In this document: piece by piece, positions 5,245-49,230 of the stretch
Layout of the letters: each line of letters opens with the position of its first letter
How positions within the stretch are numbered: position 1 is the stretch's first letter
Assembly (NCBI GenBank): GCA_977018835.1
Contig: OZ361260.1
Span: 186,001-250,000, forward strand
Direction of reading: 5' to 3'
Length of the DNA: 64,000 bases
DNA from: Minutocellus sp. GHC0000111
Lineage: Eukaryota
Program-made: the position numbers and the translations under genes
The notes under the pieces: model-generated
Database searches by the model: none
Seen by the model: the letters and a program-made list of their open reading frames with translations, nothing else
What the model was told of the DNA's origin: nothing

Positions 5245-5429
5245 TGTTTTGGGTTTTAATTTCTGTTGGTCGCCACCGTTTGGGCTTTGAATCAATAATA
5301 TGCTCCTAATGAACGTTGGTGTTCCTTCGAAGGAGATGCGAAAAAGAGATGCCGGTGCGGTGGGCTGCTGCTGACGTAGCTCCGTACCGTACGTAGTATG
5401 TACGATCATGCTGGCTTACGTACCTAGTA

Positions 5430-8906: not shown

Positions 8907-9239
8907 TACACCACCACAAGCTCAAATCTCGTCGTTTTAGCTGCTTATTATTTGAACCAACAGCGACAATGGTGAACTCCAGGAAGAGGCGACTCGTTGC
9001 TGCTGCCCGCCCCGCCCCGCCTTCTATTATAAATGGTGCATCGGAGGGGTGTGTTCCATTCGCTCGAGAATCAGAGCCATCCCGCAGACGGAAACTAGCG
9101 TATCCTGATGCTCAAGCAATTGCCCTCGGAATTCCGATTTCGGCGAGCACTACTCGTAGCTCGTGTCCTGGTGGTGGTCTGGCGCGAGAATCAAGAAGAG
9201 CAGAGGATAGACTTTGCGCACAGACGAAGAACGAGGGCA

Positions 9240-16800: not shown

Positions 16801-19800
16801 GATTCATTTTGAATACTCACGGGTGTTCAAATGGAATTGGTCCCGTTTTGGCACATTTGCATCCAACGCAGCACTCACCGATTGACGATGGCTGTAATAG
16901 TGTCGCGTTCGGTGGCCAGTGTCTCGTTTCCTTTGCATGCGTAAGCGACAACATAATCGGTAACTTCGGCTATGTCCTCTGGCGTTGGTTCGCTGTCGTG
17001 ACAGTCGTATAATAACACTTTGATATCACAATTGCCACGCCATCCTCTCAGAACGTTGAGTGGGGTCTGAATCATGCGAAGATTGTTCCGCTTCATTTCG
17101 AGCTTCAGGAAATCACGATCATCACGGGTGATGGCATGGTCTGAACGTAATTGGAATCCTGGTGTATCGCAAGCATTTGGGGTCTTCTCGTATCCTGTTC
17201 CGGCACGGCAATATCGTCGTTTATCTGGTTTTGCGGTGCTTGAATTCGTCTCGTGTGTGCTGGGAGGGGAATTTGCTGATTCTTTATTTTTCTTCGCACG
17301 ATGGTTTCGCATGCAGTAGCTCCCGCATTTATGATGTTGGCATTCAAAACAGAGTCGAGCCTCGTCCTTACGATAGTCGGAAACCTCGCCGAGACGTTGT
17401 TTGCTTGCTCCCATGTTACCGCTTTCGTCAGCAGGCCTGTCGAGAAAGGAGGAAGAGGGATCATGAGACCTTGTCGCGTCTGATCATGTTGGTTTTTGAT
17501 TCAATTTGCACATATACTCACTCGCTATTCCTGTCGATGGATGAAGTCATGCCGAAGACCCGTTCTGCCCAGTCCCCAACGAGTTTGGCCTGATCGGCGT
17601 GACTTCTGCCTCCGTCATTTAGCTGGTCCTGGAGGTCTCTTGTCATGGTCTTGTCCAATATACCAAGAAGATGGATGTGTATCTGCCCCCGTCCTTTGGC
17701 AAATTCCATTCGGCCCCAATAATATTTTATGCCGAGTAATTCCTTTCCGACGGTGTTCAAGAAATTCTCTGCACGTTTGATGAAATATTGTTGAATTACG
17801 AGGGCATAGTCATTGACGGCTCTGTTTCGATCGACCCTATTATTGCTGAGGTCAATCTTCCGTCCGTCGCGAAAGCATCGATTTCCGTTTACGATTTTCC
17901 TCCCTTCCGCGATCCATATGCGTTCTTCTAGGAGCCGTATTGCATCCGGCCAAAAATATTCCGCACAGGAAAGGGTCATGAATATGTCTGGCGCTCCGTG
18001 ATTGGCTTCTATGTGGTGAGAAATCCATGTGTATAATTTTGAGCGTTCTGGCCGCCAGTGTGAATCTGATCCACGAACTCGCTTGCTGTAGAAAATGAGT
18101 TTGCTAACAAAGGAAGAGTCGCCCTTCCTTAGCTGTTCCTTCAATTCATCGAGAGATTTGGGCGGATCGCTGATGTGATTGTTGATGAAGTATCCTCCGC
18201 TAGAATTGTTACGATGTCTTTGGCAGTAGTTATACACAAAAAATCCCCAGAGCTTGTCTCGCTGAAATCTTCCATCGGCCTGCCGTAGAAGATGTTGTGC
18301 CCAATTTGCTACGTCTATGTCTGATTCACGGTCAAGATCGCGGAAATCACCTGTTCCTCCCGGGAAAAGCCAAGGGAATGCATTCGTGAAGATGCGTACA
18401 TTGGAATATTCCGAAATGGCATCGGGATAGCTGGTCTGTGGCCAATCAAGCTTTGATACGTCGCTCTGCTCGCCTGCTGCCTCCTTCAAAGCATTTATCA
18501 TTGCTTCTTGATTTTCGTTGGTGAGCGATGTTGCCTCTTTACACGAGAAACCTGAGCATTCCTCTTCATCATTATCAATCATCAGGGGATCGATACATTG
18601 GGAATTGGACACCCCAGTCTCCTCGGTATCAGCGAGACTATCATTTTTTTCGGTGTGCACTATGTCAGTAACGGATAAGAGATCAGCCTCATCTATCCCG
18701 GCGGGCATCCAGTCAAGATTTGTTTCATCAATAGTCAATTCACCGTTCTCGTAGGCTTGCCTATAATCAGAGTGGTGCTTTACGAGCCAGAGGAGAGCAT
18801 TCATGACGCGACGACGATTCACAGTGTACATTGTCGTGACCGGAAGACCGTCGCTATTTTCGTGAGTTCGAATCATCCGTATTGCTTTGACTTGGTGAGG
18901 TAATTTTGGGAGCGACGAAGCTAGATCTTCGATATTTTGCATAAAGGAGCAAACGTGCCCCTTTATTCCAAGATTGCCATTTTTAATGTGATGTATTTGC
19001 ACGAGCGGTGAGACGCGCTGGATCAATAATTTCTCGGCAATAGTGAGGCATTCTAGTTCCGGAGGAACCTCTAGATGCTCCTTACCCTCATCATCAATCC
19101 ACAGTGGGATCATGGCATTTTCTTTCGTATAATCATTTTTCGTCCGTTTATTTGCACACCTTCGACAGACATTATTCTTGTTTACAGTCATATCAATGCT
19201 GCACTCATTGCACAAAGAGCAAACATCATGGTGAAGTTGCATCATTCTCGATTCAAATCGCATGAGCGATTCGAGTACCTTCTGTTCGGCATAGGTTGAT
19301 GCTCGGAATGCTTGGCGATTAATTGCGTACATGTCTTCCTTCCTGAAGTGGGCGTCTCTTTTCCTCCTCGCTGCCGATATTACCTTGGTGGCTTGCCCAA
19401 TGGCGATTTTGTACTTGTCATTGTTCAGTGCACGATATGGATCGCAAGCACTCAAATCAACGTCCAACTCTATTGCGTCTTCCCATAGCTGCTGCACATG
19501 AAGAGCATCATAGTCGCGAAGACGGTCATGATGCGGTGGCTTTATGTTCATCCTGGGTATGCTCTCCTTCCTTTTAATTTGTTCTAAGTGTCGTCTAGCA
19601 TTTTTCAGTCGCTGCTTTTCTTGTTTTGATACCTGTTCATTGTGTAAAAAATAATTTTAAAATTGAAAGTTAGCGTGCTAGCAGTAAGGGGCTGTGATCA
19701 TCAGCTAGTGTAGGTTCTTTTTGAATACCAGGGGGTATTCTTTCGGAACCAAGCCATGAATCGGGTGATTGGTATTTACCTGATTTTGCCTCCGCTTGAG

Positions 19801-20300
19801 ATTGCCGGTGTGTGGAACGCAGACGCCACCGCGAAGACGAATGTTTGCCATCACAGTTGATCCATTGTGCATTCCTGTCTCCCACAACTTTGCCTTTGTG
19901 TGCTCTAGTAGCTTTGACCCAAACGTCGTGTACACGTCAGATGGCGACACCGGCAGTTGAGTTGCCAGCATTGCTGCCACTCTGCGATGTAAATCAATGC
20001 AACTTTCTTCCTTGCTAGCAGGCGTGGCGATGACTGAGCCATCAGGGCACTTAATGAAGATCACCCACTCTTGGTCTTTTTTGTCAATTGCGTCCACTGT
20101 GCATCCATTGCTCAACCCCAAGCAGCAGAGTGGCAGAGGGGACAGTCGTGTCGGTTCCCATCATAAAGAGAGTCAATGTCCACTGTGCCCCGTCCTGCTA
20201 GCTTCTCAGTGGCAAGCACAACTTGAAGCCACAAGTTCCGCCCACTGCAGGTCCTTTTCACCTTGACCTCAAATGGCGATCCAAAGGGTGACCGGACCTT
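13887..20300 (-). pseudogene. Helitron Rep/Pif1-helicase (RepHel) with N-terminal ubiquitin-like domain(s); Rep half intact, helicase half degenerate
   Basis: HUH Rep motifs PDIFMTLSCAEYFWPD, EFAKGRGQIHIHLL and DYVVAYACK. Pif1 motifs QGCAGSGKS, VAPTGAAA, DERSM, VGDDYQLPP and IKRQ. In-frame GT-AG introns at 19633-19779, 17437-17521 and 16720-16878. Many frameshifts below 16.7 kb. Confidence 0.9.
13968..14220. repeat. 127-bp direct tandem duplication at the 3' end of RepHel
   Basis: The unit gaagttcctgcaccagctc...ggtgct(a/c)tgaccc starts at 13968 and again at 14095. Confidence 0.95.
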
Positions 20301-22856
20301 GATTGACCAAACTTCTTTGGGGCCGGCAACCAAGCTGGCAGACAGCCTCACCAGGCATGGGCTGTGCGCTGCTGGCATCAGCTTCATCCTGAGGGAAGCC
20401 CTTGCCAGCCCACGCTTTAGCGTCTGGTGCAAAAGAGCAAAGCTCATCTTCTCCTTTACCTTCTTGTCCATGAAAAAGTAGCTAAACCCCTTTGATGGCA
20501 CACCAAGAGGGCTGACTTCAAGCACCAAGCACCAAGATGGGGCTGTCACAAAAACTGAGGGCTTTGCAACAGTGTTCCCTGTGTTGCTCAGCTCCACTGT
20601 GCTCCACCCAATCTCGGCAACATTTAAGGAAACAATGCAGCTTCTCATCATCTTGAAGAGCCTCCTGTGTTGCTGGAACACGCTGGTTGAGCTGCAAGCC
20701 ATTGACACCTCGTCAACACTAGGCGAGTGCACGAGCACAGCACAGGGAGTTGACACAGCAATTGCTTTTTGAGGCCTGAAAGGGGGGGAAGAACAGACTT
20801 CTCCTGTCTGGCATCACTGATAGAGATGCCATGTGTGCCAAAACTGGAGGTGAAGAACACAAAAATGAGTGAGAGGTGCACTAGCAGAAGTAAGTTGAAG
20901 CACACAGTGTGGAGCAAACAGGTGCAAACAAGAGGGGCTTTTTTGATCACTATGTAGTTTGATTACAGTTTTTGATTTTTTGATTGCAAAATGGGGTCTG
21001 ACTGAATTTGTGACTGAGTGTTTGACCTCCTTCATGACTTTTGCGCTTAACGTTTTTCATTTTTTTTACAGTGGTTTGTGTTTGTGTTTGTGTGTTTGGT
21101 GTTTTTTTGTGGTTGAAGTGTGATCAAGCCCTTACCTAAGACAATGCAAAGTTTTTTAATCTCCACCAGAAAGCAGCCACCCTGAGAACAGAGTTTCACT
21201 TCCTCACTCCTCCGCAAACGTACCAGCTGGAATGCTCCCATCCTTGTAAGCAATCTTCCGCGCAACGAAGCATCTGCAGCCCAGCGTCCAGGGGGAACGC
21301 CGTCAGTCAAGAAGGACATGGCTTCCTTGATGTCTTTGTCCATCAAAACTGTGTTCAGGTGTGAAGGATCAACAACCTCCAGGTTGCACCCCTTGAAAAT
21401 GACCCAACAGGAGTGGTTGTCCTGCTCAAAATCTGAGAGCCAAGCTTGGCCCACCGCCCACCGCCGTTCACCATCATGTCAGTGTAGGCCTCCTTGAACA
21501 CTTTGGATGTCACAACTTCGTGCAACATTTGCACCAGGCAAACAGCCTCCTCGGCAGGAGGGCGAATCTTCTCTGACACGTCCAGGGAAAACATGGTGGT
21601 TGTGATTGGAAAAGCTGACCCAGTCTTGGAGTAGGACAGCTTCCCAACATCAGCACCGCAAGGAATGTCGCGCAAAGGAACCTCTTTGGCACTCTTTGCA
21701 AGGTCAGAGAGGCACGCAAGATGGGGGTTCTCGGTCAAAGCTTGAAGAGTGTCAATGAGAACATCATCAGGCTTAAGAATCCAGCAAGGGGCATTGCGCC
21801 TGTCTACGAGGTTGACGACACCCACAACTTTGGCTCTGCCTGAGGTTGTGACCACACCAGAGAGGTTCACTGTGAGCTTGTAGCCACTGGCTCCACCACC
21901 ACGGGCCTCCTTGGCACTCTTGTGCTTCTGGACAACGTCCTTGGTCAGCACCTTGATGTCAAGACTGTCCAGGTTGAGCTGTTTTGATGGTGACTTTGAA
22001 GGTGAACTGATGGCAACAGTGCTCTGACTCTGGCAACAGCAGCAGGAGGAGCAAGAGCAGCAGCAACTTTCCCAGCACTAGCGCCACCTCCTTCAGCTTT
22101 GGGGGTGCGCTTGGGGGTTTCAAGAGCACCACTGGCACTCGTGCTCACAGCATCGTCTTTGCCAACACAAGGAACAAACAACACTGTAGCTCCACTCTCC
22201 TGAATGGCACTCATTGCCTCAGGGTAACTGCTGTGAAGAACCACAGAAATGTTCTCCCAGTCCTTGCTGCCCTTGGACCGAGCTTCAAGAGCCCAGGCAG
22301 TGGCCACGCCATGCACCAAGTCACAGCAAGCATCAAGAGTGAACCGCTTGCCAGCAGCATCGTCAATGGCACTGAACACACGGGCAGGGTTGCTTTCATC
22401 CTTTAGCTCCTGCACAGGAACCCTGCTGCCAGTGCTAATCTGACAAGCACTATACCAATTGCCAAAGTAGCTGACGTCAACGCCATTTTCGAAGGCTATG
22501 ACAGCAGCTAGCTTCTCTTCTTGCTTAAGTCCACCAACCAAGCTCGGCACAGGTGAGGCTTGAGGTGGCAGAGAGAGCAGAATCATCATCACCTGTTTTC
22601 TTCTAGGCAACAGGGCTTGACTCACCACGCTGATCATCAGCAACAGCTCTCTTCTTAGAGACCACAAGAGCAGAAACACTGTCACTCTTGTTCTTTTTTG
22701 CTGAAGAACAGCTGCTGCTCTTCTTGCTGTCGTCACCGCTACCACCAGCAGCAGCGACAGCCACAGCAGCAGCAGCACCAGAGCTTTTGCTGCTGCGCAG
22801 GTTCCTGCTAGGAGAGCCAGTGCTTGACATAGCAGCTGGAAGAAACATAGTAACAA
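20300..22856 (-). pseudogene. Degenerate Helitron-associated ORF(s) upstream of RepHel
   Basis: Chain of frameshifted minus-strand ORFs (20112-20756, 21047-21454, 21355-21951, 21945-22856) in CpG- and TpA-poor DNA. Confidence 0.55.
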
Positions 22857-23686
22857 CTAACATCATAAGAACTAGAAAGGTGTAAAATCACAGTTGCACG
22901 TGCAGATGTGTGGACTTTTCGGGCATTCCGAATGAACACCTCCGGGAAAAATACTCCCAAAATAATGTCTTTCCTTCGTGCGTCAAAAATAAGGAACCGC
23001 CACCATGCCACGCGCCATGCCATGCGCCATCGGTATGCCGCCCATGCATGCCGCTCCTGCCCATCGCCGACAACGATGGTGATGAAAGCTTGGGACCCGA
23101 TGGTAAAGATCGATCACCTGCACTGCGCGACCATTCAAGCGCAATGGGCGACTCGTTTCCAGCATTACAAATGAACAGAGTAATCAACTTGACATGATCA
23201 TACGATTCATTGAACGAAACCGAGACGCGGCGACGATCCCGAGCAATAAATGTACAAGTCGCACTGAATAAAAGCGGCGCCACGACTGAGTGACGCAAAC
23301 GCGAAGGGCACTTACGCTTATCTTCCGTGGAATATGGCGACCTCGGAGCAATGTTTTCTTTCGATGGGACGCTCTTGCCAAGAGCGTTGGTCGAATCGTT
23401 GAGATGGACTGGCACTTATCACTTTTCTCAAATAATGAAAGATGAATACACGTGCGAGAATGAACATGAAGATACGGCGACACCAAAGGGCTTTTCTATT
23501 CTGACATCCGGTCGAACGAATCAAGATTTCTGCGAATTCCGAGAAAATACCGGACCATTCGCTCACAAAACTTGGAAAAAAAAAATCTGATACCGATCGC
23601 AAAGTAAGGTGCTTCTTCGTACAACGAACGATACATCGCTCATATTGACGTCCACTCATCATCCGCCTCGTAACAAAGAAGTGACC

Positions 23687-26600
23687 ATGGCCACGGTTGG
23701 CGATCCCCCAGATGGAAGCGAGGATGCTGGTGACAGCGGCAACTCTCGGCGTGCGGCGAAGGCTGGGAGCAACGATGTAAGTATCAACTATTTCTGTATT
23801 CATTTCGGTGAATGAGCATGCGATTGATATCAGATCCACACATATTTTCGACTGACCAAGAGCGAAAGGGAATTCCCCGCACTGATGACACATGAAAGGG
23901 AACGTCGACAATCATTGTCCATTGGTGTGTGATTTTGAGTTGCAATCAAAATCATCCAGCGGTAGCAATATTTCCCTTCAAGGAGAACATTTTTTTTTTT
24001 TTTTTTTCGTGCTGATTTATTTCCATGACGTAATCATGATGATTATATGACGTTCTTCCTTTTGAATACCCCCCAGTATTCATTCGGAAGAACCAAAACG
24101 AGATCTAACTCTCCTTTGACTTATACATTGTTTTATTTACGTGACATAGCAAATCCAAATCCAACTCCCAGATGAAGGAATTAAGCAACTGTTGACTGCT
24201 GCCGGTATCGAAGCAACGTTTCTCAATCATAATGGAAAGATATGTGTATGCATTGGCGAGGCTTCAACGGTCAAGCTCTCGGTCCTTTTTCTTCGTGCTC
24301 TTTTGAAGTACTTCGGGGCCACTGACCCTGCAATTAATGGTGAAGATATTGGTGCCGCTGGTGATGGAAACGATAGGGGCGCTTGTATCAGATTGAACAC
24401 TGAAGGATTTGGGAGCACTGGAGCTTTCAAAATGCTGGTGTATTCACTCGTCTCGCAGGGCATTCATGCCTATCGCACTTACGGCGAGGTAGATGACAAC
24501 TTGGATGACCTAAATCCGTATCGACGTAATCTCATCATGCGCAGCGAAGACGTTAGAATAATGATGAAGATAATGGATAACGAGGGTTTCGCCGGTGAAC
24601 TGACGCTCGGAAAATTCACCGAGGATCTCAATCATGAATGGTGGGAATTTTACTATGGAGTGCTCCCTTCTCATCATGGTGACACAAACTCTCAATATCA
24701 GACTTATCGTCGTGACGCAAATTACGTGCAGAGCTTTCTCTTCGGGATAATGAAGACGTTGCTTAGAAAGCGAGACGTCAGCGAACCAACAAAGACCCTG
24801 TTAGAATGTGAACTCGTCCGTGATCGGCGACCAGGGGGGAAAGTGGAGAACCTCGACAACCTGTGGATAGAAGACCCCTCTGCCGCGCTTGCATTTTATC
24901 CATTCGTTTCCAATAATAACATCGAACGTATCCTGAAATGCATGGACATAATTGACTCTGGTATCGTGCCAGACTACATCAATAGGGACGGTGACGATGA
25001 CGTTATCGATAAACTTTTTGCCAGTTACCATCCTTTCATTGGCGGAGAACTCAAAAGACGCGGAGCGGAATTCTTTGTTTGCATTCATCGAGATTCGCTT
25101 CCTCAGTTGATAGATTTATTTCTGACTAACGCAATTGACCATCTCAGGGCTACGGTACCAACACTTCTCAGTGAGGACGATCATGTTGGTCCTGATGTTT
25201 TCGCGGACAATAAGGAAAAGAGATATCTCGTCTATCTTTTCCTTGTACAAGGGCTATTGGCGACTCTTGCTCTTGGAGAATTGACAGAGGGCCCTATTTC
25301 AAATGATCTTGACTTACGATTTGCGACAAGCGGAGAAGAGCGGCAATCCATCCACGACCTCTTTCGATCTCATGAATTTCTTCCAACGATCGGTCCGAAC
25401 ACAAAATCAACTGGTAGTTGGGTCGGATATAATGCCATGACTCCCTATTACCTGGGCCAGTTCTTGAAAGACAATGTCCAACTGATTAGGAATAAAGAGG
25501 TGAACATGAACACCCAGAGCTATATTATCGGAGTAATGAAACTACTCTTTGCCAAGCGCTCGAGACCTGCTGTCAAATGTCTCTTGAAGTATGACATATG
25601 GTATGAAGTTGGATTGGGCAGATGGCAGAATATTACGCCCCTCTGGGAAAGTAAAGGATTTGTCGCAAAGACAGAGTTGATGAAAGTGGCCAAAGTATTG
25701 GATGAAATTGACCGTGTGGCTCCTAATGGGGCGGCCATCCTTAATGACTATCTACAAGCCCATTTCGCGAGGGTGGGTGAGGAAACAAAAGCCCATCTTG
25801 ATACGCTCGAAAAGGATACCTTTCTAAATCATGACGAACTCAGCGATGACGCCTCAGATAAAGAAATGAGCGAGACTGAACGCTCGAGGCTATTCGTCGA
25901 CGCTGCTACACCAAGGCGGGAGAGTCGAAAAATGGCCAGCCGAGAAACGCTACTTCTGGAAACTGACAGGCCTCATGGTGCCGTCGATAACGCCGAGGTT
26001 AGTACCGAAGGAAACACCAATGATCAGGAAGCCCTACCGATGGAAGAAGAGGACTTCAATGCACCTCCAGTTAACGACGACTCTATTGATAATATCGATA
26101 ACGCTGACGATGAAGCCGAAGAAGCCAACAGCGAGGCATAATATCGATAACGCTGACGATGAAGCCGAAGAAGCCAACAGCATCGACGACTCGAGTGGCA
26201 GCGATAGAGACGAGCAGAGTAGTGAGGGCAGCGGCAAGAGTGACAATGATAGTGACGATTAAGATGAATTTAAAGATGTCGATCATCTCGCAAACATAAC
26301 CGCAAGCACGACGAAAGTTGATTTAAAAACAAGCATTGCTTCGAGAGGGGATTGGCCAATTGTCCTGTTGGCCTACGTGTCGTTACCTTTCCCGAAGACT
26401 TCCTCGCAGCGATTGAAACTCAGAGGCTGTAATCAGCAACTAGTGCAGCGGGCCAAGGCCGAAGACATCGCAGTGGACATGTTCCGGAGCAGAAATGAGG
26501 CGAAGGAGCAGCTTACATTCCAACCTGCAACGCTGATGATCGGAGCCGTTGGCAATGAAGCAGATAATGATGAGGAGGATCTTGTGTTCGATGCAGAATA

Positions 26601-29542
26601 CGGCGTCGCGAGTGGCGAGTCAACAGTAAAGCGGCACGTGGTCGAGTGTTCAGGACCCAAGGTACTGTATTATGTCATGCTGTCAGCAGGAAGCTATGAA
26701 GAAGCCGATAAATACATCCAGGAAACTATTGAAAAGGGAAGAATAGAGGAGAATTGGAACCAGGATTATCATGACGAGTGCTCAAAAATTGCCGAAGGCT
26801 TGGCAAAAGACATTGCGAGCATCGAATCATTCATAGAGAAGGACAAGAATAGTGAGATCGAAGGGTAAGTGCTGATTTTTATTTTCTGGTTAAATACCAA
26901 GAGGTATTCAAACAGAATTTGAACACTCACGAATATTTCCTCTCTTTGCGCATAGGGAACCTCTTCTTCGAGACTTGGACCGATATACAGGGATGAAAAG
27001 AACTCACTATGTCTTGCGGGCGCGGTATGACATGGTGATTTACTTGTCTCGCCGTCGTCTCGGATCAACCTTTCCAACGTCAATGAGTTACAATTTAATT
27101 GGTTGCAACATTGATGGCCAGCACCGTGGTCTCGCATCGTGGATGAAAACATTCGGTTTGCCATATGGTGATGATAGCAATCGCTCCTTTGACGTGACCA
27201 ACCCGACGCTGCGGAAGCAAATGGAATGCTACCATAATCAAGGATCCAACGTGTTGCACGCTGATTCACAGATCCTCGACAAGGTCAATGTCACGGTTCT
27301 TCATTTCACACGAGATGTAGACCACCTCAGAGCAGTCAGTGACCTTAATGCTCGTGCTGCATCATCGGGACAAACCAATTTCTCGCAACTCAGCAACATG
27401 CTCAAAGATCTCAATGCTGCCAGCCAGGCCAAGGAAATTAAGCATCACACCGTAGAATCATGTCTCATGGAGAGTGGTGGTACTCTCGAAGGAACACTCA
27501 TGTCCGTTAGGGGGGCAGCGGCTTTCGCCCTCGCAAAGAATCTAACTGCGACCTCGCTCTGGGGAAGAGAAGAAATCTCGAAGGTAAAGACAAATGGCGA
27601 TGAAGTAACGCCAGAAAAGAAACTCGAAATGGTGGTAGCGCAGATCACGCTTCTGGCTCGAGGATATCAAAAGGATCCCGACTGTGATGACGACGCCAAA
27701 TTCCATAACGCAATTGGTCACAGAATATCGTATGGAGTTCACAAATTCGAGGCCCCGAAGCAAAAGAGCACCTTCACGCTGACCAAAGAAATCAGAGGAA
27801 CACTTGATCTTGCATCGATGATGGCCCTCAACCCCTCCGCCCTCATCACCTTCCAAATGGCACTTTCTCAGGATCCAAAGATGGCTTCGTACAACAAGCT
27901 TGAACTTATATGGGCGTTTCTGCGGAACGTGGCATCAACTATCGCCGGGAAACAGAGCAAAGGCGCAAGAGGAACAAAGAAGCTCAAGGGAGTGATCGAC
28001 AGCACCCTCGATAATCTGCCGACATATAAATTGGAGGCCATCAGGAATCACATCTTCTACAATGCTCTGTCAGAAATAACCAAGGAATTCACCGAAGTTG
28101 CCCTGGCGACCAAAGGATTCACGACGGTTGAGGTCTCAAACTGGTCGGCAGAGAAATCGATGCTAGTGCAGGGATATCGAGCTTATCAGAATGATCGTCA
28201 CAACGAAGCATCGGCCGAGAAAAGAGATCACATGACAGATACGATCCTTGCCACAGCCTACAAGAACAGGACAGAGTGGACGTCCAGATCGAATTCTCCC
28301 CCAACGGACGTGCTATCATTAGCAATGGCTACATACGTCTCCGTGCTGAGGGAAGCACTAGACGCAGGATATCTGCAGAGCGACGCAATGAAGAAGAGAA
28401 TCAAGGATCTCAAGAACGAAGACGATTGGTTCCTCTTCTCGTCGTCAACGATGAGACGAGATCAGATTCCAACGGACACCGACCTCGACGATAAAACTTG
28501 CATTGTTGGATTCAAGTCAACAAGTGACGAGATATTGTACCTCAGGAAAGAATTCCGATTCGCAGCCATGGTGAGACTGCTAATTGACGAGCCCGCTGAG
28601 GAGGACAAGAATGATCCCAATCTTGCTCAACGATTATGGAAAGCCAAAGATCCAGGGTCAAAAGGTACGATATGAATAATTGAAGCTCGCCTCTTCCTTT
28701 CGTGGTATTCTTCGATAATTGCTCTTTCCTGGTATCCCTTACTCAAATTTAATATTTCTATTTTCCAATCGACAGCAGCCAAACGACGACGATCGCCTAC
28801 ACCAACGTCAAAATTAACAACAAAACCAACCAATGCAGATAACAGTGCAAGGCAAAATGCTGACGACGCGAATGAGAATCAAGATAATTCCGAGGAACAA
28901 GTCGGGGGCCAAGACCAGTCAAGACGAGCAAAAAGAATGAAGTCATCACCGCGACAAAATGAGGAAGTAGTCGCAGGTGATGCCGCTCAAGAGTCGCCAC
29001 CGGCCCGTGATACTAGCCATAGTCCCAAAATGCAACAAGTTATAAGGTACGCCAAAGCACTCCGTGATGGTGATGCAAATCCCCACAGCAACCGTAGGAA
29101 AATGGAAGAAAAGGATACGATCAAAGACGTGACCGTCGGGGTGATGACCGCTGCTGCCGAGGAACTGAGACATGATCCGTTCAGGAAACTTAGTAAGAGC
29201 GACCTGAAAAAGTTAGTCCAAGAAAATCCCAACGACGTGGTGACAATCCTCACCCACCTAAACAAATGGAGAAGAGCGTTGGCAAAGGACCTCAACGCCA
29301 CAGCAAAAAGGATCAAGTCGCCCAGAGTCAAAATGGTGACTCCCCACTCCTTCTCGGAGCTAGGAATGTATGAAACGCAGGACTCGTCCCAAACACCAAC
29401 TTCAGCTGGGACTAGTGATATTGCTGTCCAAGATCAAAATGGAGATCATGCTTCCCCTGTACAAAATCGAAATCTTGGAAATGATCTGAACAATGAAGAG
29501 GCAAAATCCAATGGTGATGAAGATAGTCCTTCAGGTATATGA
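23687..29542 (+). pseudogene. Giant (~1,740-codon) four-exon gene with an IDGQHR ParB/DndB-like motif, disrupted
   Basis: Exons 23687-23776, 24150-26864, 26956-28664 and 28776-29542 join in frame through GT-AG introns. Broken by a 49-bp-period duplication (26089-26181) and a TAA at 26260. Confidence 0.7.
26089..26181. repeat. Tandem duplication of a 44-bp unit with 49-bp period, causing a frameshift
   Basis: ataatatcgataacgctgacgatgaagccgaagaagccaacagc at 26089-26132 and 26138-26181. Confidence 0.95.
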
Positions 29543-29670
29543 TTACATATTAGAGAAATAATAATATATATTATATATGAGCACGTGCCCAATAAAATAC
29601 CACCCTAAGATGAACATAGCACGTGCACATAAAACGGAGAGATGAAGACCACACTCACTTATGCAGCATG

Positions 29671-30573
29671 CTAAACCTGACCATAATCATCCCCGTCATA
29701 TATAGACCTATTAAAAGCCTCACCGCCCCTGAATAATTCCCGCAACAGTTCGAAGGTCGATGATCCAGATGCAAACATGTCGCTGTGATTCCCATGAGTG
29801 TGAATATCATGGAATCTACGAAAATGATGAGCAGGAGAACCATACTTGTGATGCCTCTGCCGAGCGTGAATATCACCACCAAATTGAACATTAAAACGGT
29901 GATATTCTGATATTACACGAGGAAGATACTCATGATTCTGGCGACAGATAAAATGCAAGAATGTGCTTCCTCGCAGTAAAACTCGAGATCCGAATGGATC
30001 ACTACGAAAGTGAAGACAACCAACGTACTCCATGAGGCGGTGATCAAACAAGTACCGATGATATCTCGACGAGGACACAAGAGCTGACACCATGCCCCAC
30101 TGGATGTCATCAGCATACCGCTCGACGACCCTGCCACGCTCGGAGACGCGAAAGAAAAGAACAAATATTTCACAAAGAAGCTGGCGAATGTAGAATAAAT
30201 CCCTACAAGCAGCCGACAAAGAAGACATGGACATCATACTCCTCATCGTGCCATCGGCTTCCAATTGACTGCTCCTGAGACCGGAATACGCTGATGATAA
30301 ATACTGAGGAACATAAGTGCTCTCCACCCAACGAAAAAATCGGACTGTACAAGAATGACCGAGAAGGGACATAACCACGCCAGACCAAGCGTCATTCTCA
30401 GCAGCGCCGTCACTACCAGGACCAAGTATAGTGGACATCAACACGATGCGCCGAGCCAGCTCACGCCCAATAAATGATGGCCCGTTAACGAACCGAGAAA
30501 GCTCAATGCTCGCCCCCGTTGAAGAGGATGAGCCCTGACTGGAGATGCTCGACCTACGCATAAAGGATGGCAC
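29671..30573 (-). CDS. Hypothetical protein, possibly Helitron cargo
   Basis: 300-aa open frame, Arg/His/Phe-rich; no family recognised. Confidence 0.45.
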   Translation of the reverse strand: MPSFMRRSSISSQGSSSSTGASIELSRFVNGPSFIGRELARRIVLMSTILGPGSDGAAENDAWSGVVMSLLGHSCTVRFFRWVESTYVPQYLSSAYSGLRSSQLEADGTMRSMMSMSSLSAACRDLFYIRQLLCEIFVLFFRVSERGRVVERYADDIQWGMVSALVSSSRYHRYLFDHRLMEYVGCLHFRSDPFGSRVLLRGSTFLHFICRQNHEYLPRVISEYHRFNVQFGGDIHARQRHHKYGSPAHHFRRFHDIHTHGNHSDMFASGSSTFELLRELFRGGEAFNRSIYDGDDYGQV

Positions 30574-31014
30574 ACAAACACACCAAAGCTAATAGCACGA
30601 AGTGCCGGGGCAACGCTCCGTATAAACTAACTAACAACAAAGATAAATCACTGCGATCATCACATTAGAGGCCGCCCGGGACATCTGCACCAACAACATG
30701 ATAAACGCAAGAACCCAACCCAAGAGCGATAACAACTCGCAGAATACATGTACCTAGGTACATGTACGAAATTAAGGTACGCACGACAAGCACCAGATGG
30801 TCCCCCCTGGTGCCGCGCACATTTCCTCACCAAAACCACCCCGACGCGGGAGCACCACTCGTCATAAAAATGGCTGAGAAGCTGAGAATGAGATGAGTCA
30901 GTCGCAGAGAACCCGGAGGCATAATTGACGCCGCGCGGAAGTCAGATCAAAAGAGCGCCAGATAGATTGCACCAAGAAGCAATGCCGATGCATTCATAAT
31001 TCCGCAAGTCAAAA

Positions 31015-40865: not shown

Positions 40866-40996
40866 GAATCCTCCTACGTAGCTAGAGCTAGCGATGGCCA
40901 GAAGGATGTGGAATGGGAAAGTAATACACAAACGATTAACCATAGTTCCAGTATGTTTGTATGTACACAACTTAAATAGGTAGATAGGTCATGATG

Positions 40997-42260
40997 CTAT
41001 TGGACCTCTACGACCTCAACCACGGGAAGACCACGCAAGGTCCCAGAGCCAACTATCGGCGTCAGTTCCGGTTCTACAAAGTCTTGTGGCAGCTTGCTCA
41101 TGCTGGTGACTTCGCTCTCTGATCTTGCTAGCAAAGGTATTCTCTTCTCGTCTGGGACCGTACAAGTACCGACGCCATATTCGAAGCATTCAAAAGTGCT
41201 GCTAGTGGCATCAGGTTCTTGATAATGGCACGCCCCTGCGCCATAAATGCCCATCATTGCTTGGCCCATGTCTCGAGCAAAGTCCCAGCTGCATTCTCCG
41301 CTTGCCCTTGCCCAGCCCACACCCCTGGCATTGTCGGCAAGTTTTCTATTGTATGCCGATGGATCGGCTGTTCGATTCCAATCACGTTCTCTACTTGTTG
41401 TCAAATGATAAACCTTGGCTGACGGCACAGATTGCTCGGTCATTAAAACGAGTGCGTTGCACGATGCGTCGTGAAGCAAATAGTGATCTGCGACAAAGAG
41501 TGGTAAGGTAAAGCTAGGCATATTCGGCACAATATGTTCGTGGTACATCTCTCTGTTCCAGGCGAAGAAATCAACTCCCCTCAAACCATACCTGTTCCTT
41601 TTCTGAAGGTGTGTCTTCTCAACATGAGCTAAGGCATCTTTTTGGGCAGTAGGTTCGTCAAATCTGTTCAAGTACACATTCCATCGCACAGTCGTTGCGA
41701 ATCGCCACCTCGTGTAGGCATCCTTCTCGGAAGGACAGCTCGCTGCATTGAATTGGTTGACGGTCTCTAGAATTGATATTGATGGACAGATATCGCCGTT
41801 CATGAAAGTACATGATGCCGTTCATGAAAGTATATGATGCCGCGTCCGGCCAAAGCTCCCCCATCCTTCGAACGAGGGTGCCAAAATCTTTTTCTTCGGT
41901 TGGACTTATCATCACGGCTTGGAGGGGAAGGTTCTTGTCGTCGATGTACTTCAGCACTGCCTCGTCGGTGGTATAGATGGCTATTGAAGATATTTCGGCT
42001 GTCTGTGATGCCAAGGAGGTAAGGCAGCGCAGATGGAACTTTACAAAATCAGCATGTCTTTGTCCGTGTCCGGTGATGGGAAGCACTGGAGTGGTCAGTA
42101 TCATCTTCCCTGCAGCGGATTCGACTCTGCTGGTAAGGTCAACGGACTGAAGGATTCGCCCACTGCCTTCCCCGGTCAGCATCACGTCGCTATCTCCTCC
42201 CAACATGAAAAGCCCAGCAAGGGCCAAGAGGATTGCGATCGGTGCTTTTTGCGAAATCAT
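40997..42260 (-). pseudogene. Glycosyltransferase-like type II membrane protein, full-length copy frameshifted by a 22-bp duplication
   Basis: N-terminal anchor; YTFMNGDI, GVDFFAW and MPSFTLP motifs resemble GT-A-like families. Removing the duplication at 41795-41838 gives a 413-aa ORF. Confidence 0.65.
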
Positions 42261-43949
42261 GGTATATGTACCATACCAAAGTTACCGCGTACCCTGTAGA
42301 AGCAAATGGAATACTGCTTAGTCAAAATACTAGGCTACAGAAGGGAACGCAGAGGTACGCGTAGTCAATGGCTGAGCATGCTTGGGCCATTGCGAAATCG
42401 GGGACGTCGATTTGAGGTCATCAGTAGCAGTCATTGAGGTGTTTTCAGGCCGTTCACACAAGGGACCTCCCTTGGTTCACAAAGCTCACAATGACGACGT
42501 GTTTCTATCAGGGCTGAGTTGAAGGCTTGGGGTTCATTCAGAAACCAGGGAACTTCAGTGACGCGACGCGACCAGACGGGGTGGAATGAATCCGAACTCT
42601 TTCTTCCTCCTCCTCCCCCCTCCTCCTCCTCCCTCTCGCCAGTACCGGTACGATTTAGAGTCAGTGCAATACAACACAATGGCACGTTCAAGAAAGAAAA
42701 AATACATCAAACTTTATAACGAAACAAAACCCATTTCGTTCAACGAATGGGGCCACAACATGTGTCGCCGACGTGCCTCCCATTGAGAACAATCAAGACT
42801 ACGGGGCACCATACCCTTGTAATAGCCTTTCACAACACTGTGGTGCAGCAGGAGACTTGCAATTACTTTTTTGAGCCTTGAAAAATTCGTTCGCGTTAGA
42901 CCCGATTTTTTCGACAGTTTCCGACGTTCCATCACGACCATGTTCGCCCGATGTACAGCACCACCCCGGCCATCGCATACACTCTGACCACCTAGATGCC
43001 TTCCTGAATATTACTGGAAGGGATTTTTGGGCGATAGCGGTGCGTCGGTGCGTGCCTGTACCGCGAAATGTGGCCCAGCGCCATTACCACCCCCATTACA
43101 CCACCCATCCGAAAGTTGGTCCGGATGCTTTTATGCGGTCCATGCACCACTTCCGTTGCACTGAGCCGTCGACGCTTCACCCATATATATACCAAGCGCA
43201 TTTGAGTGGGGGGTGGTGGCATTTCTTGACAATTCATAGAGAAAACTATTCCCAAAGTCCCGTGTCTGATGTCGGCACCAGATTTCACCTTCATTGCTTC
43301 TGCCGCCCGAGAGGAACGAAACCGGAGAAAGCGGCCAAACCAACACGTGAGATCGATGGATGTAATATAGAATGAGCATCGTGCGTGCTGATATTGCGTG
43401 AAGGAACAGTGGTTGAGGCTTGAAGGGGGTTGTAGTTGGGGATTTGCTACTTTCAGATGTTTTTGCTTTCCATGGTGACGGCCACAATGATACAAAGATG
43501 GGGCCCAATATCGACCCTCTGGCGCAAACTTGCTCCCAACATTACCCAAGTGAAAGTAATGCCGGTCAGGGAGGATTGAAATGGATGTAGACAAGCATCA
43601 GCCATCATTCTTTGCCATTTTGAGGGTAAAAAAATATTGAAAATTTCTGGGCATGAGGAGATGTTGCTAAAATAGCACATGATGTACGATTGAGTTTGCT
43701 TTCAAGTATGCAATACTCACCTAACGCATGTAGTTGGCGTATACATCGGTTGGCTTGGAGTTATTTATCGTTATACCATCATTTGGTGGCCTTCTTGTGG
43801 AGATGAATTCTCCTTGCTTTCGCCGTGTTGAGAGAGGCCATTTAGTGGGTTCATTTTTGCGCTGCATAAAGTATCGCACAAAAAAATTTCCTAGTGCCTT
43901 ACTATTTACGGCGATTTTGTCGGCGGTCTCGAGGAATCACTCTACAATC
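41513..43949 (+). repeat. Left arm of a ~2.4-kb inverted repeat
   Basis: Reverse complement of 46422-48839. About 20 substitutions and 4 indels by manual alignment (~99% identity). Confidence 0.97.
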
Positions 43950-44074
43950 ATGTGTGTACTACATACAAATATGTTAAAGACGTCTACACATGTAGAATCT
44001 ACATTTGCGCTTGCATCGCTTAATTTTATGTGCATGCCACCATGCCTTATATATAGATCTTCGTAGACCAAGAT

Positions 44075-45166
44075 CTAGACATCTACATGATATGGAAACA
44101 GGAAGTCGAGTTGAGACCAGTCTAGCCTGGAGAGGAAGGAAGCTAGCTCGTTGTTGTTGCTGCTACTGCTGCTGTTGTTGTTGGGATGTACTTCCTGGCT
44201 TGGTTCTAACGTGCTGAAGGAATTATAACTTGCGTTCAACGAAAAAGATGCACTCGGAACTGCCGGTTTTTGCGAAGTAACTGTGAGAGGTGCAGGCTCG
44301 AAGAGATCGCCGCACAGGTAGGACGATCCGACGGGGTTGGTGGTCGCATTGGCGTCGATCAACGCCGGTGCACTCAGGTTCTCACCGATGATCGGTTGCT
44401 GCAGTGAAGATGGTGGTGGTGCGGCGGCAAACCCGGTGCTACCAGTGCCGGTAGTGGCGACCGAGGAGGTAGTCCCGTCGCTCTGGAAGTGAACGAGGCT
44501 TGGCATGCTACCAGTGCTGGTAGTGCCGGTAGAGAAAAGGGCCTCCTCGAGGACAGCATGCACGTTCGATCCTTGTGCTGCAGGTTGAATTTCAAAGGAT
44601 GAACGGCGGCTTTCCGACGAGGAGTCATTCTCCTGCGTCTGATGCTTGGCCTGCCTGGCAATATCCTCGAAGACGCTCTTGGCGCTCACATCTAAAGTCC
44701 TCCAGGAGCTGGCGACCTGGATGGTGAGCTCCTTGAAGCCAATGGCCCCGTGAGACTTGCGATGACGTCTCTTCTGTCCGCTCTGGAGGCGGTACGGGTC
44801 GCGCTCGAGGACTTCGAGGACGTGTTTGAGCTTCTCTTCGTGGGTGAGACTGTCGTTGAGGATGTCGAGCGTCATTCCCGGCGATACGGTGACAGTGCGA
44901 TGATACTTCATGTAGAAATTATATCCAGAGAGATTGCGACGGCGCTTGGGCTTGTCCTTTCCGGCGCTCTTGCCCTTAATCTTGCCCAGGTTCTTGCCCT
45001 TGGGCGCACCTTTGGGCTTCTGATCATCAGGGAGAGAGAGTGAAGGAGAGGTTGATACTTCAAGGTTGCCACTGGAGTTCGTGACCTTGCTGAGGTACGT
45101 AAAGTCGTCAATAAAACGCTTCCCCTGAATCCCCTGGTGATTGAATTCTAAGATGTTCACGTTCAT
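44075..45166 (-). CDS. HMG-box protein (diatom-type, split box), intact
   Basis: PKRRRNLSGYNFYMKYHR...RRHRKSHGAIGFKELTIQVASSWRTLDVSAKSVFEDIARQAK. 363 aa from ATG 45166, with an S/T/N-rich tail. Confidence 0.85.
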   Translation of the reverse strand: MNVNILEFNHQGIQGKRFIDDFTYLSKVTNSSGNLEVSTSPSLSLPDDQKPKGAPKGKNLGKIKGKSAGKDKPKRRRNLSGYNFYMKYHRTVTVSPGMTLDILNDSLTHEEKLKHVLEVLERDPYRLQSGQKRRHRKSHGAIGFKELTIQVASSWRTLDVSAKSVFEDIARQAKHQTQENDSSSESRRSSFEIQPAAQGSNVHAVLEEALFSTGTTSTGSMPSLVHFQSDGTTSSVATTGTGSTGFAAAPPPSSLQQPIIGENLSAPALIDANATTNPVGSSYLCGDLFEPAPLTVTSQKPAVPSASFSLNASYNSFSTLEPSQEVHPNNNSSSSSNNNELASFLSRLDWSQLDFLFPYHVDV

Positions 45167-46198
45167 GGTGAATGTCGTAGCTGGTCTGGTCGCTTGCACA
45201 TAGATTGCGATGCGATGATGAATGATACAGAGTGCTAACAGGACTGAGTCGGTCTGTGGATGTAATGGAGCACAGTAGCAGCGACGGTAAAGCGGAGTGC
45301 CGACGCTGTGTGGCATCTTGTGCACCCTTCGCGGTGACGCCGCGATGTGATCGTGTTGTGTGGGATTGTTTTCCCGCTTCACCGGTTTGACGTGTCATTC
45401 GGATTCTTTGAAGAGATGGGAGTACGAGATTGCTTGTTGGGGAAGGACGATTGCGACGTGGCAATTCTCATGCTATAAATGTTGAATGCGTGACACTCGA
45501 CACGTGCAAACACGTCATTGAACAGTCGAACTTCAACCAAATTCAGCGGGATTGTGACTGTCGCTTCAACATTTATTTTTCACTTTTTTTCCCAGTGTGG
45601 TCATGACATTTTTCCCATAATGTCCGCAGCAATTTGTTGCCAGCTAATTGCCGCATCGGCATGGCGCGGGCCATCATCATGGCGGCCGAGAGCAGAGGCA
45701 CGCGGCGGGTGGATGCTACTGAGCTACTAGTAGACCAGGACCTAGTGCAGCTACATGTACGTAGCTAGCTAGAGCTAGCTCTGCTCTAGAAAGTGCGTGC
45801 CAAGACAAGAGAGAGAGCACCTCGCATTGGTTGAAGCTCAGTGGTGGTGGCAGTGACAGAGCAAGCTCACGAACAGGGGAGCACTGTCGAAGAGGGATGC
45901 CAAGACGGAGGAAGAACTCGTTTGGGTGTGAGGTGCAGCAACACCTGCCTCAGGCGTGTCGCTGAGCCGCCGAAACGACAGGACCACGCGCGCACCGCTA
46001 CAACACTTGAGATCTCATTGCTCGCCACTGATGGGGACACCTCTCCACATTCTGTTCTGTTGTTCTGTGGTTAACCTTGTTTAGCAGGAATCAATCCAAG
46101 GGCGCGCACAAAGATGGACACCTCTACATGTAGCCAGCGACAGTCTGCATTGCACGCTGCTGGAGCTCTTCGTGAAGGAGCGAGTGTGAAAATCCTAT

Positions 46199-46268
46199 GT
46201 AGCTAGCTAGCTAGCTAGCTAGCTGTTGCGCAGAGATGCCACATGGCAGGATGGATGGATGGATGGAT
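46199..46268. repeat. (TAGC)n and (GGAT)n microsatellites in the palindrome spacer
   Basis: About 6 TAGC units followed by about 5 GGAT units. Confidence 0.9.
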
Positions 46269-46421
46269 GTTGGTGGATGCATGCACCGGTAGCTGAAAAG
46301 GGGCTGTGTCCATCATCGGATCCGTAAAAAGGGTCAGGAACCTACAAGGATTTGCATTCACGAAGGGGGCGAGGGCAGTGGATTACATGCATTTTTAATG
46401 TCACATGGATTGTGTTCCATG

Positions 46422-48839
46422 GATTACAGAGTGATTCCACGAGACCGCCGACAAAATCGCCGTAAATTGGAAGGCACTAGGAAATTTTTTGTGCGATACT
46501 TTATGCAGCGCAAAAATGAACCCACTAAATGGCCTCTCTCAACACGGCGAAAGCAAGGAGAATTCATCTCCACAAGAAGGCCACCAAATGATGGTATAAC
46601 GATAAATAACTCCAAGCCAACCGATGTATACGCCAACTACATGCGTTAGGTGAGTATTGCATACTTGAAAGCAAACTCAATCGTACATCATGTGCTATTT
46701 TAGCAACATCTCCTCATGCCCAGAAATTTTCAATATTTTTTACCCTCAAAATGGCAAAGAATGATGGCTGATGCTTGTCTACATCCATTTCAATCCTCCC
46801 TGACCGGCATTACTTTCACTTGGGTAATGTTGGGAGCAAGTTTGCGCCAGAGGGTCGATATTGGGCCCCATCTTTGTATCATTGTGGCCGTCACCATGGA
46901 AAGCAAAAACATCTGAAAGTAGCAAATCCCCAACTACAACCCCCTTCAAGCCTCAACCACTGTTCCTTCACGCAATATCAGCACGCACGATGCTCATTCT
47001 ATATTACATCCATCGATCTCACGTGTTGGTTTGGCCGCTTTCTCCGGTTTCGTTCCTCTCGGGCGGCAGAAGCAATGAAGGTGAAATCTGGTGCCGACAT
47101 CAGACACGGGACTTTGGGAATAGTTTTCTCTATGAATTGTCAAGAAATGCCACCACCCCCCACTCAAATGCGCTTGGTATATATATGGGTGAAGCGTCGA
47201 CGGCTCAGTGCAACGGAAGTGGTGCATGGACCGCATAAAAGCATCCGGACCAACTTTCGGATGGGTGGTGTAATGGGGGTGGTAATGGCGCTGGGCCACA
47301 TTTCGCGGTACAGGCACGCACCGACGCACCGCTATCGCCCAAAAATCCCTTCCAGTAATATTCAGGAAGGCATCTAGGTGGTCAGAGTGTATGCGATGGC
47401 CGGGGTGGTGCTGTACATCGGGCGAACATGGTCGTGATGGAACGTCGGAAACTGTCGAAAAAATCGGGTCTAACGCGAACGAATTTTTCAAGGCTCAAAA
47501 AAGTAATTGCAAGTCTCCTGCTGCACCACAGTGTTGTGAAAGGCTATTACAAGGGTATGGTGCCCCGTAGTCTTGATTGTTCTCAATGGGAGGCACGTCG
47601 GCGACACATGTTGTGGCCCCATTCGTTGAACGAAATGGGTTTTGTTTCGTCATAAAGTTTGATGTATTTTTTCTTTCTTGAACGTGCCATTGTGTTGTAT
47701 TGCACTGACTCTAAATCGTACCGGTACTGGCGAGAGGGAGGAGGAGGAGGGGGGAGGAGGAGGAAGAAAGAGTTCGGATTCATTCCACCCCGTCTGGTCG
47801 CGTCGCGTCACTGAAGTTCCCTGGTTTCTGAATGAACCCTAAGCCTTCAACTCAGCCCTGATAGAAACACGTCGTCATTGTGAGCTTTGTGAACCAAGGG
47901 AGGTCCCTTGTGTGAACGGCCTGAAAACACCTCAACGACTGCTACTGATGACCTCAAATCGATGTCCCCGATTTCGCAATGGCCCAAGCATGCTCAGCCA
48001 TTGACTACGCGTATCTCTGCGTTCCCTTCTGTAGCCTAGTGTTTTGACTAAGCAGTGTTCCATTTGCTTCTACAGGGTACGCGGTAACTTTGGTATGGTG
48101 CACATACCATGATTTCGCAAAAAGCACCGATCGCAATCCTCTTGGCCCTTGCTGGGCTTTTCATGTTGGGAGGAGATAGCGACGTGATGCTGACCGGGGA
48201 AGGCAGTGGGCGAATCCTTCAGTCCGTTGACCTTGCCAGCAGAGTCGAATCCGCTGCAGGGAAGATGACACTGACCACTCCAGTGCTTCCCATCACCGGA
48301 CACGGACAAAGACATGCTGATTTTGTAAAGTTCCATCTGCGCTGCCTTACCTCCTTGGCATCACAGACAGCCGAAATATCTTCAATAGCCATCTATACCA
48401 CCGACGAGGCAGTGCTGAAGTACATCGACGACAAGAACCTTCCCCTCCAAGCCGTGATGATGAGTCCAACCGAAGAAAAAGATTTTGGCACCCTCGTTCG
48501 AAGGATGGGGGAGCTTTGGCCGGACGCGGCATCATATACTTTCATGAACGGCGATATCTGTCCATCAATATCAATTCTAGAGACCGTAAACCAATTCAAT
48601 GCAGCGAGCTGTCCTTCCGAGAAGGATGCCTACACGAGGTGGCGATTCGCAACCGAACGACTGTGCGATGGAATGTGTACTTGAACAGATTTGACGAACC
48701 TACTGCCCCAAAAGATGCCTTAGCTCATGTTGAGAAGACACACCTTCAGAAAAGGAACAGGTATGGTTTGAGGGGAGTTGATTTCTTCGCCTGGAACAGA
48801 GAGATGTACCACGAACATATTGTGCCGAACATGCCTAGC
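46422..48839 (-). repeat. Right arm of the ~2.4-kb inverted repeat
   Basis: Mirror ORFs identical to the left arm (e.g. 46775-47377 vs 42992-43594). Confidence 0.97.
48109..48839 (+). pseudogene. 3'-truncated copy of the glycosyltransferase-like gene
   Basis: Lacks the 22-bp duplication, carries a 5-bp insertion at ~48652-48656, and ends at the arm boundary. Confidence 0.85.
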
Positions 48840-49230
48840 CGAGAGGCTGCCCGTCAAGGTCCACGTCGTGTGATGTCATAAAGAAATAAAAATCGTCCAA
48901 CCAACCAAAAGTCACGCACGCTCATTTTCGAAGACAGAGTGTAGTGACCGCCGCCCAGAGACTGAGAAGTATCGACCGCCGCCACTCGAATAGCATGGAC
49001 ACATGCAACACATACGTTTCGGTCCATAATTATCCTACCCAAATTGTTTTCTTTGGCCCGTTGCTACCATTGCGTGTCCAGCTCATTGAAAGCAACGCAT
49101 AGCGCCCAAAACGCAGAGAGACCCCCAGAGAACATTCGGAAACTCAGCGGGTGGTAAAAGAGTTTCCACGAAATATAAGGCTGCTTCCACGCTTGGAGAG
49201 CACTTACTCTTGCCCTATTTGCAAGAGACT

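Follow-up and report, generated by a model that had tools for sequence, protein, structure and literature searches.

Loss of TpA dinucleotides in transposons and in a transposon-linked gene duplication of Minutocellus

Why do the two arms of an inverted duplication differ mainly where one arm reads TpA and the other TpG or CpA? The question is raised by a 64,000-nucleotide stretch of Minutocellus sp. GHC0000111 (assembly GCA_977018835.1, contig OZ361260.1, positions 186,001 to 250,000, forward strand; hereafter the window, numbered from its first letter), in which part of a host gene, here called gene A, is duplicated together with a transposon fragment. The window is eukaryotic and gene-dense, with compact genes and about 50% GC. 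Several of its open reading frames (ORFs) start with ASAFAP-like signals, which we take to be plastid signals, and its DNA is matched in marine, biofilm and sponge metagenomes. We consider it probable that a host activity edits the DNA of silenced transposon domains, turning TA into TG or CA, with a short spread into neighbouring DNA and fastest in the context RTAY (R, purine; Y, pyrimidine).

The inverted duplication and the direction of change

The left arm (41513-43949, 2.44 kb) and the right arm (46422-48839) were compared by pairwise alignment. They differ at 20 substitutions, of which 15 are transitions, and 12 of these exchange TA for TG or CA (left coordinates 41522, 41907, 42100, 42134, 42266, 42269, 42312, 42328, 42529, 42718, 43944 and 43945). 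By chance this class should make up 23.4% of transitions, and the probability of 12 or more in 15 is 5.8e-6; the least favourable count tried, 10 of 15, gives 4e-4. The first-pass annotation of this DNA had reported the same numbers, the same coordinates and a chance share of about a quarter, and the alignment reproduced the counts exactly. It had also treated the three remaining transitions, all AT<->GT, as one class. This class fell apart on polarisation: 42406 is CAT>CGT in the left arm, 42433 is CG>CA in the left arm and thus CpG decay, and 42355 is GT>AT in the right arm. ApT as a second target was rejected because the three sites polarise in three ways, and because Met-to-Thr change was seen in only 1 of 515 cells. 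The arms also differ by a 5-bp insertion (right), a 22-bp duplication (left) and two indels of 1 bp.

Each arm has two parts. In contigs of four sequencing runs, the outer part (41513-42686) lies near flank depth and the inner 1.26 kb at more than 100 times flank depth. The outer part comprises the 5' part of gene A and its promoter. The inner part is a fragment of a high-copy transposon (42687-43946 in the left arm, 46425-47682 in the right), cut at 42687; its true end, near 43946, coincides with the inner edge of the repeat, and the right-arm copy has TA and then CAG at its end. The fragments of both arms have two letters in common that are unlike the family majority, and therefore derive from each other. 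Two metagenomic loci with a motif of the high-copy element, about 25 matching bases among bacterial-type genes, were dismissed as chance. The single-copy spacer between the arms holds an HMG-box ORF (44075-45394, minus strand).

The original, full-length locus of gene A lies at 40997-42260 on the minus strand, and the truncated second copy at 48109-48839 on the plus strand. Homologues have 412-416 amino acids (aa) in most full-length cases; no Pfam family matched gene A, and a weak lead hints at a glycosyltransferase-like protein. Both copies are frameshifted, the original by the 22-bp tandem duplication (41795-41816) and the second copy, in which TA hits replace Ile by Thr, Ile by Met and Thr by Ala, by the 5-bp insertion. 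The 22-bp duplication, present in the left arm only, is derived, as contigs of runs X1, X15 and X16 show 22-base gaps (29 gap bases in X2). Its units are identical except for TA versus CA, as the first-pass annotation had noted; in the second unit TAT has become TGT, where 19 homologues have Tyr (14) or Phe (5).

The inverted repeat is real and not an assembly artefact, because the right-arm junction is crossed by a contig from run X8 (48710-49133) and recurs as a fusion in P0148, a protein encoded on a Logan contig. The runs compared at the level of strains and sister taxa were X1, X2, X3, X8, X15 and X16 (X9 to X24 were otherwise left out); Logan contigs may be mosaics of alleles. Without the 5-bp insertion, as in P0148, the right gene A copy is predicted to run on through 48840-48881 as a fusion of 255 aa; this putative P0148-type fusion is arranged head to head and keeps the promoter. 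Another protein, P0130, is an intact gene A product of 413 aa with the left arm's private Val as well as Glu135Gly and Tyr143Cys. It has no letter-for-letter match in the window and may represent a third gene A copy on the contig or a product of gene calling.

Sequence comparison settles the direction of change at the arms as TA to TG or CA, because other strains, sister taxa and homologous proteins carry TA or its residue. An X1 contig spanning 41694-42249 shows no substitutions against the left arm and four against the right. TA is present in X1 and X2 at 41522, 41907, 42312 and 42328, in X1, X3 and X8 at 42100 and 42134, and in all four runs at 42529; at 42266 and 42269, X15 and X16, which are sister-level runs, do not depart from TA. 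At both Ile sites, including the one in the motif MILTTP, Ile is found in 19/19 other homologues, and the three nearest alleles have Thr at 42134. All nine TA-class sites in the host-gene part are TA losses, with eight of the derived alleles in the right arm and one in the left; five of the nine hits are private to this assembly. The first-pass annotation had argued for a polarity opposite to that of repeat-induced point mutation (RIP), with MILTTP changed to MTLTTP, and both proposals are borne out; the reverse outcome that it had named, CpA to TpA, is not what these sites show. In P0148 the right-arm junction occurs together with residues that are not mutated, and the hits concerned therefore postdate the duplication. 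The three sites within the element (42718, 43944 and 43945) are not firmly polarised.

Loss of Tyr codons and RTAY in transposons

The first-pass annotation had also pointed to loss of Tyr in the transposons of the window, and a transposase family confirmed it on a larger scale. The element at 5427-8909 (plus strand) is bounded by terminal inverted repeats of 25 nt, with TA at either end, and its transposase belongs to a family of at least 275 database proteins on megabase ENA contigs. A Tc1/mariner affiliation is weakly suggested by below-cut-off HTH_Tnp_Tc3_2 matches in two relatives, together with the terminal repeats and TA ends; a PDB search with the transposase (P0013) returned nothing useful. 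Just inside the left end of the element lies a 24-nt inverted repeat (92%) with a 25-nt loop (5575-5647).

We aligned 63 close proteins with the window copy (64 sequences) and examined 27 columns in which the ancestor was inferred to be Tyr. The 779 cells of these columns hold Tyr 305 times, His 262 times and Cys 207 times, giving 61% His or Cys; the cells of a protein alignment do not represent independent events, and a single locus may be present as more than one protein model, which counts against taking these totals at face value. A>G changes at codon position 2 after C, A and G amounted to 3/946, 5/2267 and 6/2895 (about 0.3% or less), and reverse changes to 1/652 cells (His to Tyr 1/371, Cys to Tyr 0/281). 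A further test of ancestry used the 60%-identical protein P0005 alone as outgroup: columns with Tyr in the outgroup were polymorphic in 15/20 cases, compared with 3/145 columns for nine control residues, and 39/49 polymorphic columns fitted a TA hit by manual count. The outgroup-only control 'change' of 0-39% was set aside, as it reflects fixed differences between lineages and not polymorphism.

Change in this family depends strongly on the preceding base. It affected 645/2803 T[A] cells (23%), compared with 17/5271 for A[A], 19/4629 for C[A] and 9/6506 for G[A]. Within TA, both flanks matter: RT[A]Y (524/1289, 41%) exceeds YT[A]Y (95/712, 13%), RT[A]R (25/430, 6%) and YT[A]R (1/372, 0.3%). 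CpG change occurred in 38/4390 cells (0.9%), about 25 times more rarely than TA change; CpG decay is therefore too rare in the mariner-like family to explain the loss of TA.

Hits occur independently in each copy, on both strands and without strand coordination. Complete hit patterns were distinct in 16/17 cases, with at least two family proteins having one and the same pattern; all four His/Cys combinations were present for 37/45 site pairs, and the unmutated Tyr fraction per copy ranged from 0 to 0.82. Strand-processive editing was considered and rejected, as adjacent same-strand hits (116/242) equal the null expectation of 116.8.

The same context ranking was found independently in a Helitron, whose patches contrast in RTAY and YTAR. 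Its helicase end (14001-16300, minus strand) contains 4 RTAY where 28.9 are expected, with a CG observed/expected ratio (O/E) of 0.30, and an upstream depleted patch (20001-22900), which we infer to be the other end of the Helitron, contains 2 where 36.5 are expected, with a CG O/E of 0.34. RTAY O/E in the patches is about 0.05-0.12 and YTAR is unchanged. AT outside TAT/ATA stands at 0.89-1.04 there, compared with a gene level of 1.3-1.5, a smaller drop than that of AT overall. TA and CG loss occupy the same Helitron tracts. The multi-copy Rep core between them (16501-19900, minus strand) has normal TA and CG. It falls in a 30-member cluster of 97-99.6% identity, and in the 14 other copies examined TA change affected 10/1351 cells, some 7 times the level in other contexts, with the changes gathered in a few copies (0 to 4 hits each), although the clustering favours less-mutated copies. 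Polarising Tyr in the Helitron was abandoned because the only full-length relative is 36% identical and too distant.

The stretch 14001-22900 looks chimeric, with TA- and CG-stripped ends and a frameshifted helicase around a fresh Rep ORF of 677 aa. Of the 14 further copies listed, 4 have this ORF at full length, and the helicase end, too, has copies that closely resemble that of the window, so that by its sequence the mixed Helitron seems to have spread recently. On its 3' side lies a 127-bp tandem duplication with one A/C difference (13968-14220). Beside the Helitron, 23000-30600 contains long ORFs (663, 201, 593, 288 and 305 aa) of lower GC with normal TA and CG; no match was found in Pfam (4 tested) or PHROGs (5 tested). 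This stretch may be a mobile or viral insert, so far unrecognised, that has been spared by editing.

Controls, trigger and rival explanations

For the strain background we used a single-copy contig (48841-53432), mostly coding, on which X1 shows 48 differences, and counted the first 20 of these. They include 11 transitions, 3 of them of the TA class, corresponding to 3/158 TA sites between the window and X1. In the host-gene part about 9/46 TA sites differ (p=1e-4 against the single-copy DNA), and the window-private hits alone give 5/46 (p=0.016); outside TA, the host-gene part and the single-copy DNA change at the same rate (0.46% vs 0.40%). Listed sister-taxon differences in or beside gene A include the TA class in 5/15 transitions. 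In 34 allele or orthologue proteins of five host genes, T[A] change (20/1101) was no higher than in other contexts, and Tyr was kept in 251/267 cells, with 13 Phe and 3 Cys. In gene regions, non-coding DNA included, RTAY is the best-kept TA context (O/E 0.76-0.91). The first-pass annotation had asked whether single-copy sites share the TpA bias; single-copy genes show no excess of TA loss in these controls, which are small and mostly coding.

Loss of TA is concentrated in transposon and duplicated DNA and is not genome-wide, and this much of the RIP-like, repeat-targeted system proposed in the first-pass annotation stands. Pairing of repeats as the trigger does not fare as well: it is unproven, somewhat disfavoured at this locus and absent in Bigelowiella natans as described in the main text of Mettrop et al. 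(10.64898/2026.01.13.699255). The element in the arms has no substitutions over 42719-43900, compared with 15 in 41513-42718 (p=4e-5), a result that gene conversion or polishing could also produce. The single-copy flank at the transposon end (43950-44300) differs from X1 at 44053, 44085, 44091 and 44225, all TA<->TG/CA. This is 4/26 TA sites within 350 bp of the element end, followed by 0/46 (p=0.008 versus background); two of the four are changes in X1 only and the others are unpolarised. RTAY in the spacer is at 0.58 of the gene level (17 seen, 29.5 expected). Because the high-copy insert and the young Helitron cores are nearly spared and the single-copy flank is hit, pairing is probably not the trigger. 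Targeting of domains is favoured because of the flank hits, the co-location of TA and CG loss and the description of diatom transposons as CG-methylated islands (PMC9998398).

Two features of the spacer and its surroundings are recorded here. A 739-bp spacer stretch beside the right-hand element end (45757-46496) is free of RTAY, at a mean spacing of 87 bp; it may be older, fixed leakage, and gene regions also show gaps of 500-560 bp. Intergenic TAGC runs (40870-40895, 45730-45790 and 46195-46225) have kept their TA steps, YTAR being the coldest class.

Under the model of edited silenced domains, a transposon end would have carried 1.17 kb of gene A into the inverted copy, and the gene A copies with nearby DNA would have joined a silenced, probably CG-methylated domain. 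There, deamination would turn the A of TpA, on one strand or the other, into inosine; replication would fix the change as G, and the site would then cease to be a target. Repeated rounds would strip Tyr codons from transposases, with defence as the net effect. The candidate editor is probably an adenine deaminase, which would be recruited to silenced transposon domains.

Several observations weigh against this model. The main fact that it leaves unexplained is the spared inner element, which calls for gene conversion or a protected young family: the high-copy element in the arms is not depleted of RTAY (22 seen, 18.6 expected), and its TA differences (3/59) are fewer than those of the host-gene part (9/46; p=0.03). 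The low CpG decay of the mariner-like family leaves its CG methylation undemonstrated. The 5' purine of RTAY does not fit the pyrimidine at tRNA position 32, a point against unmodified ADAT2. At the arms, X2 carries the right-arm alleles at 42266 and 42269 and, at half depth, at 42100 and 42134, as well as the 5-bp insertion (judged from P0098 and a gap count), so that two to four hits may predate the duplication; deeper homologues are mixed at 42134 (Thr 10, Ala 9; n=19); and the arm depth of X1 (159-204 vs 128-150) may conceal an extra copy.

The alternative that we take most seriously, while holding it unlikely, is a true reverse RIP, in which duplicates are recognised by homology pairing and both partners then undergo mutation at TpA, possibly aided by a RID-related DNMT4, the flank hits being leakage. 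It would account for the finding that the host-gene segment, once duplicated, is hit about 10-fold above background in both arms and at distances of up to 1165 bp from the transposon, and for the lack of an excess among sister-taxon differences in gene A. Many diatoms are reported to have DNMT4, which may be a relative of RID (PMC9998398). Nevertheless, hits are fewest in the most repeated part of the arms, and the 14 other near-identical Helitron cores show only the few TA changes given above. RID, moreover, acts on cytosine. The hit flank and the target in B. natans (10.64898/2026.01.13.699255) are both single-copy. A related proposal, that a homology-sensing pathway, possibly tied to DNMT4, directs an RTAY-specific adenine deaminase of double-stranded DNA to any duplicate, host genes included, is a little more doubtful still. 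We regard as improbable that an error-prone polymerase (Pol iota- or eta-like; PMC3031609) puts G opposite T during repair or replication of silenced chromatin, the loss of TA being a by-product and not a defence. Hits on both strands without coordination agree with it; the low A[A] rate is unlike the Pol eta WA pattern, transversions at Tyr are rare, and the near-palindromic RTAY ranking requires both flanks.

Could TpA instead be mutable throughout the genome, with an excess visible only under relaxed selection, in dead transposons and pseudogenes? Even in genes, TA O/E stands at about 0.6, most of the control sequence is coding, and in each of the three TA-class differences of the background it is the window that has TA; mild genome-wide TpA mutability may therefore exist, which also tells against a purely regional process. 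As a full explanation it is very unlikely and largely refuted, given background class shares of 3/11 (strains) and 5/15 (sister taxa) against 23% expected, arm non-TA rates equal to background, and RTAY that is best kept in gene regions and nearly absent from the Helitron patches. The classical RIP direction (CA/TG>TA) and assembly error we consider refuted. In their favour, and a further point against the preferred model, are a TA gain at 40965 (TA in the window, TG in X1, X15 and X16) and a possible CA>TA in the left arm at 43944. Against them stand the uniform TA loss in the host-gene part, the scarcity of reverse changes, the three-state Tyr/His/Cys columns, which require a Tyr ancestor, and the presence of the junction in independent data.

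These findings extend a mutational defence signature at TpA, so far measured in one rhizarian alga, to a stramenopile alga, to DNA transposons and to a duplicated host gene. If the preferred model holds, there would be a natural enzyme that acts on chromosomal DNA, turns A:T into G:C, clearly prefers RTAY and can be searched for and assayed. Dating of transposon copies and estimates of GC evolution in such genomes would be biased, erasure of TAA and TAG would create long spurious ORFs, and the survival of gene duplicates adjoining transposons may be limited. The locus is also a natural test of the trigger, duplication versus proximity. Reverse RIP by such a deaminase, if true, would mean that a natural defence which edits the genome from A to G had for the first time been shown to act against duplicated genes, and it would also supply a new enzyme for base editing.

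Comparison with known systems

RIP is triggered by repeat homology, premeiotically, depends on a RID/DNMT4-type enzyme and on the sexual cycle, and leaks into flanks. The signature described here resembles it in the dinucleotide-specific transitions on both strands, in the degradation of transposons and duplicated genes and in the leakage. Unlike RIP, which acts as C:G>T:A at CpA>TpA, makes DNA AT-rich and creates stops, it removes TA, Tyr, TAA and TAG. RIP is described from Neurospora and other ascomycetes (PMC2621366, PMC7296669).

Deamination of 5-methylcytosine in DNMT5-methylated diatom transposons (PMC9998398) would likewise leave TG and CA, and in the same Helitron tracts, but it starts from CpG, the dinucleotide that changes so much more rarely than TA in the mariner-like family. 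The resemblance to other editing systems is more general. Retroelement editing by ADAR and APOBEC and WA mutagenesis by Pol eta are enzyme-driven, context-specific hypermutation, with A>G in the case of ADAR and Pol eta, the latter raised at AA plus TA. Unlike these, the targets here are DNA transposons without an RNA intermediate, strand coordination is lacking and AA is not raised.

The closest parallel is the chlorarachniophyte B. natans. The first-pass annotation had known of no characterised mechanism of this kind, but the same TpA-only A:T>G:C signature has been measured there de novo in viral insertions (nucleocytoplasmic large DNA virus and virophage), at about 1000 times background, with an ADAT2-like deaminase proposed and the enzyme not shown in the account given (Mettrop et al., 10.64898/2026.01.13.699255). 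This preprint was the only relevant report in our literature search, which found no published diatom description of TpA hypermutation. In both algae, A:T>G:C change is confined to TpA and yields both TpG and CpA, is regional and spares ordinary genes (within the limits of our controls), and is uneven among lineages or copies; in B. natans, transposon domains are enriched among TpA-depleted genes. The targets there are viral insertions, the large one single-copy. No PHROGs family was matched by 10 window proteins, and no viral gene was recognised among them. The main text of the preprint describes no flanking preference, duplicated host gene or link to CpG. In Minutocellus, unlike B. natans as described there, the signature lies in DNA transposons and a duplicated host gene, follows the RTAY ranking, is co-located with CpG loss and leaks into the flank.

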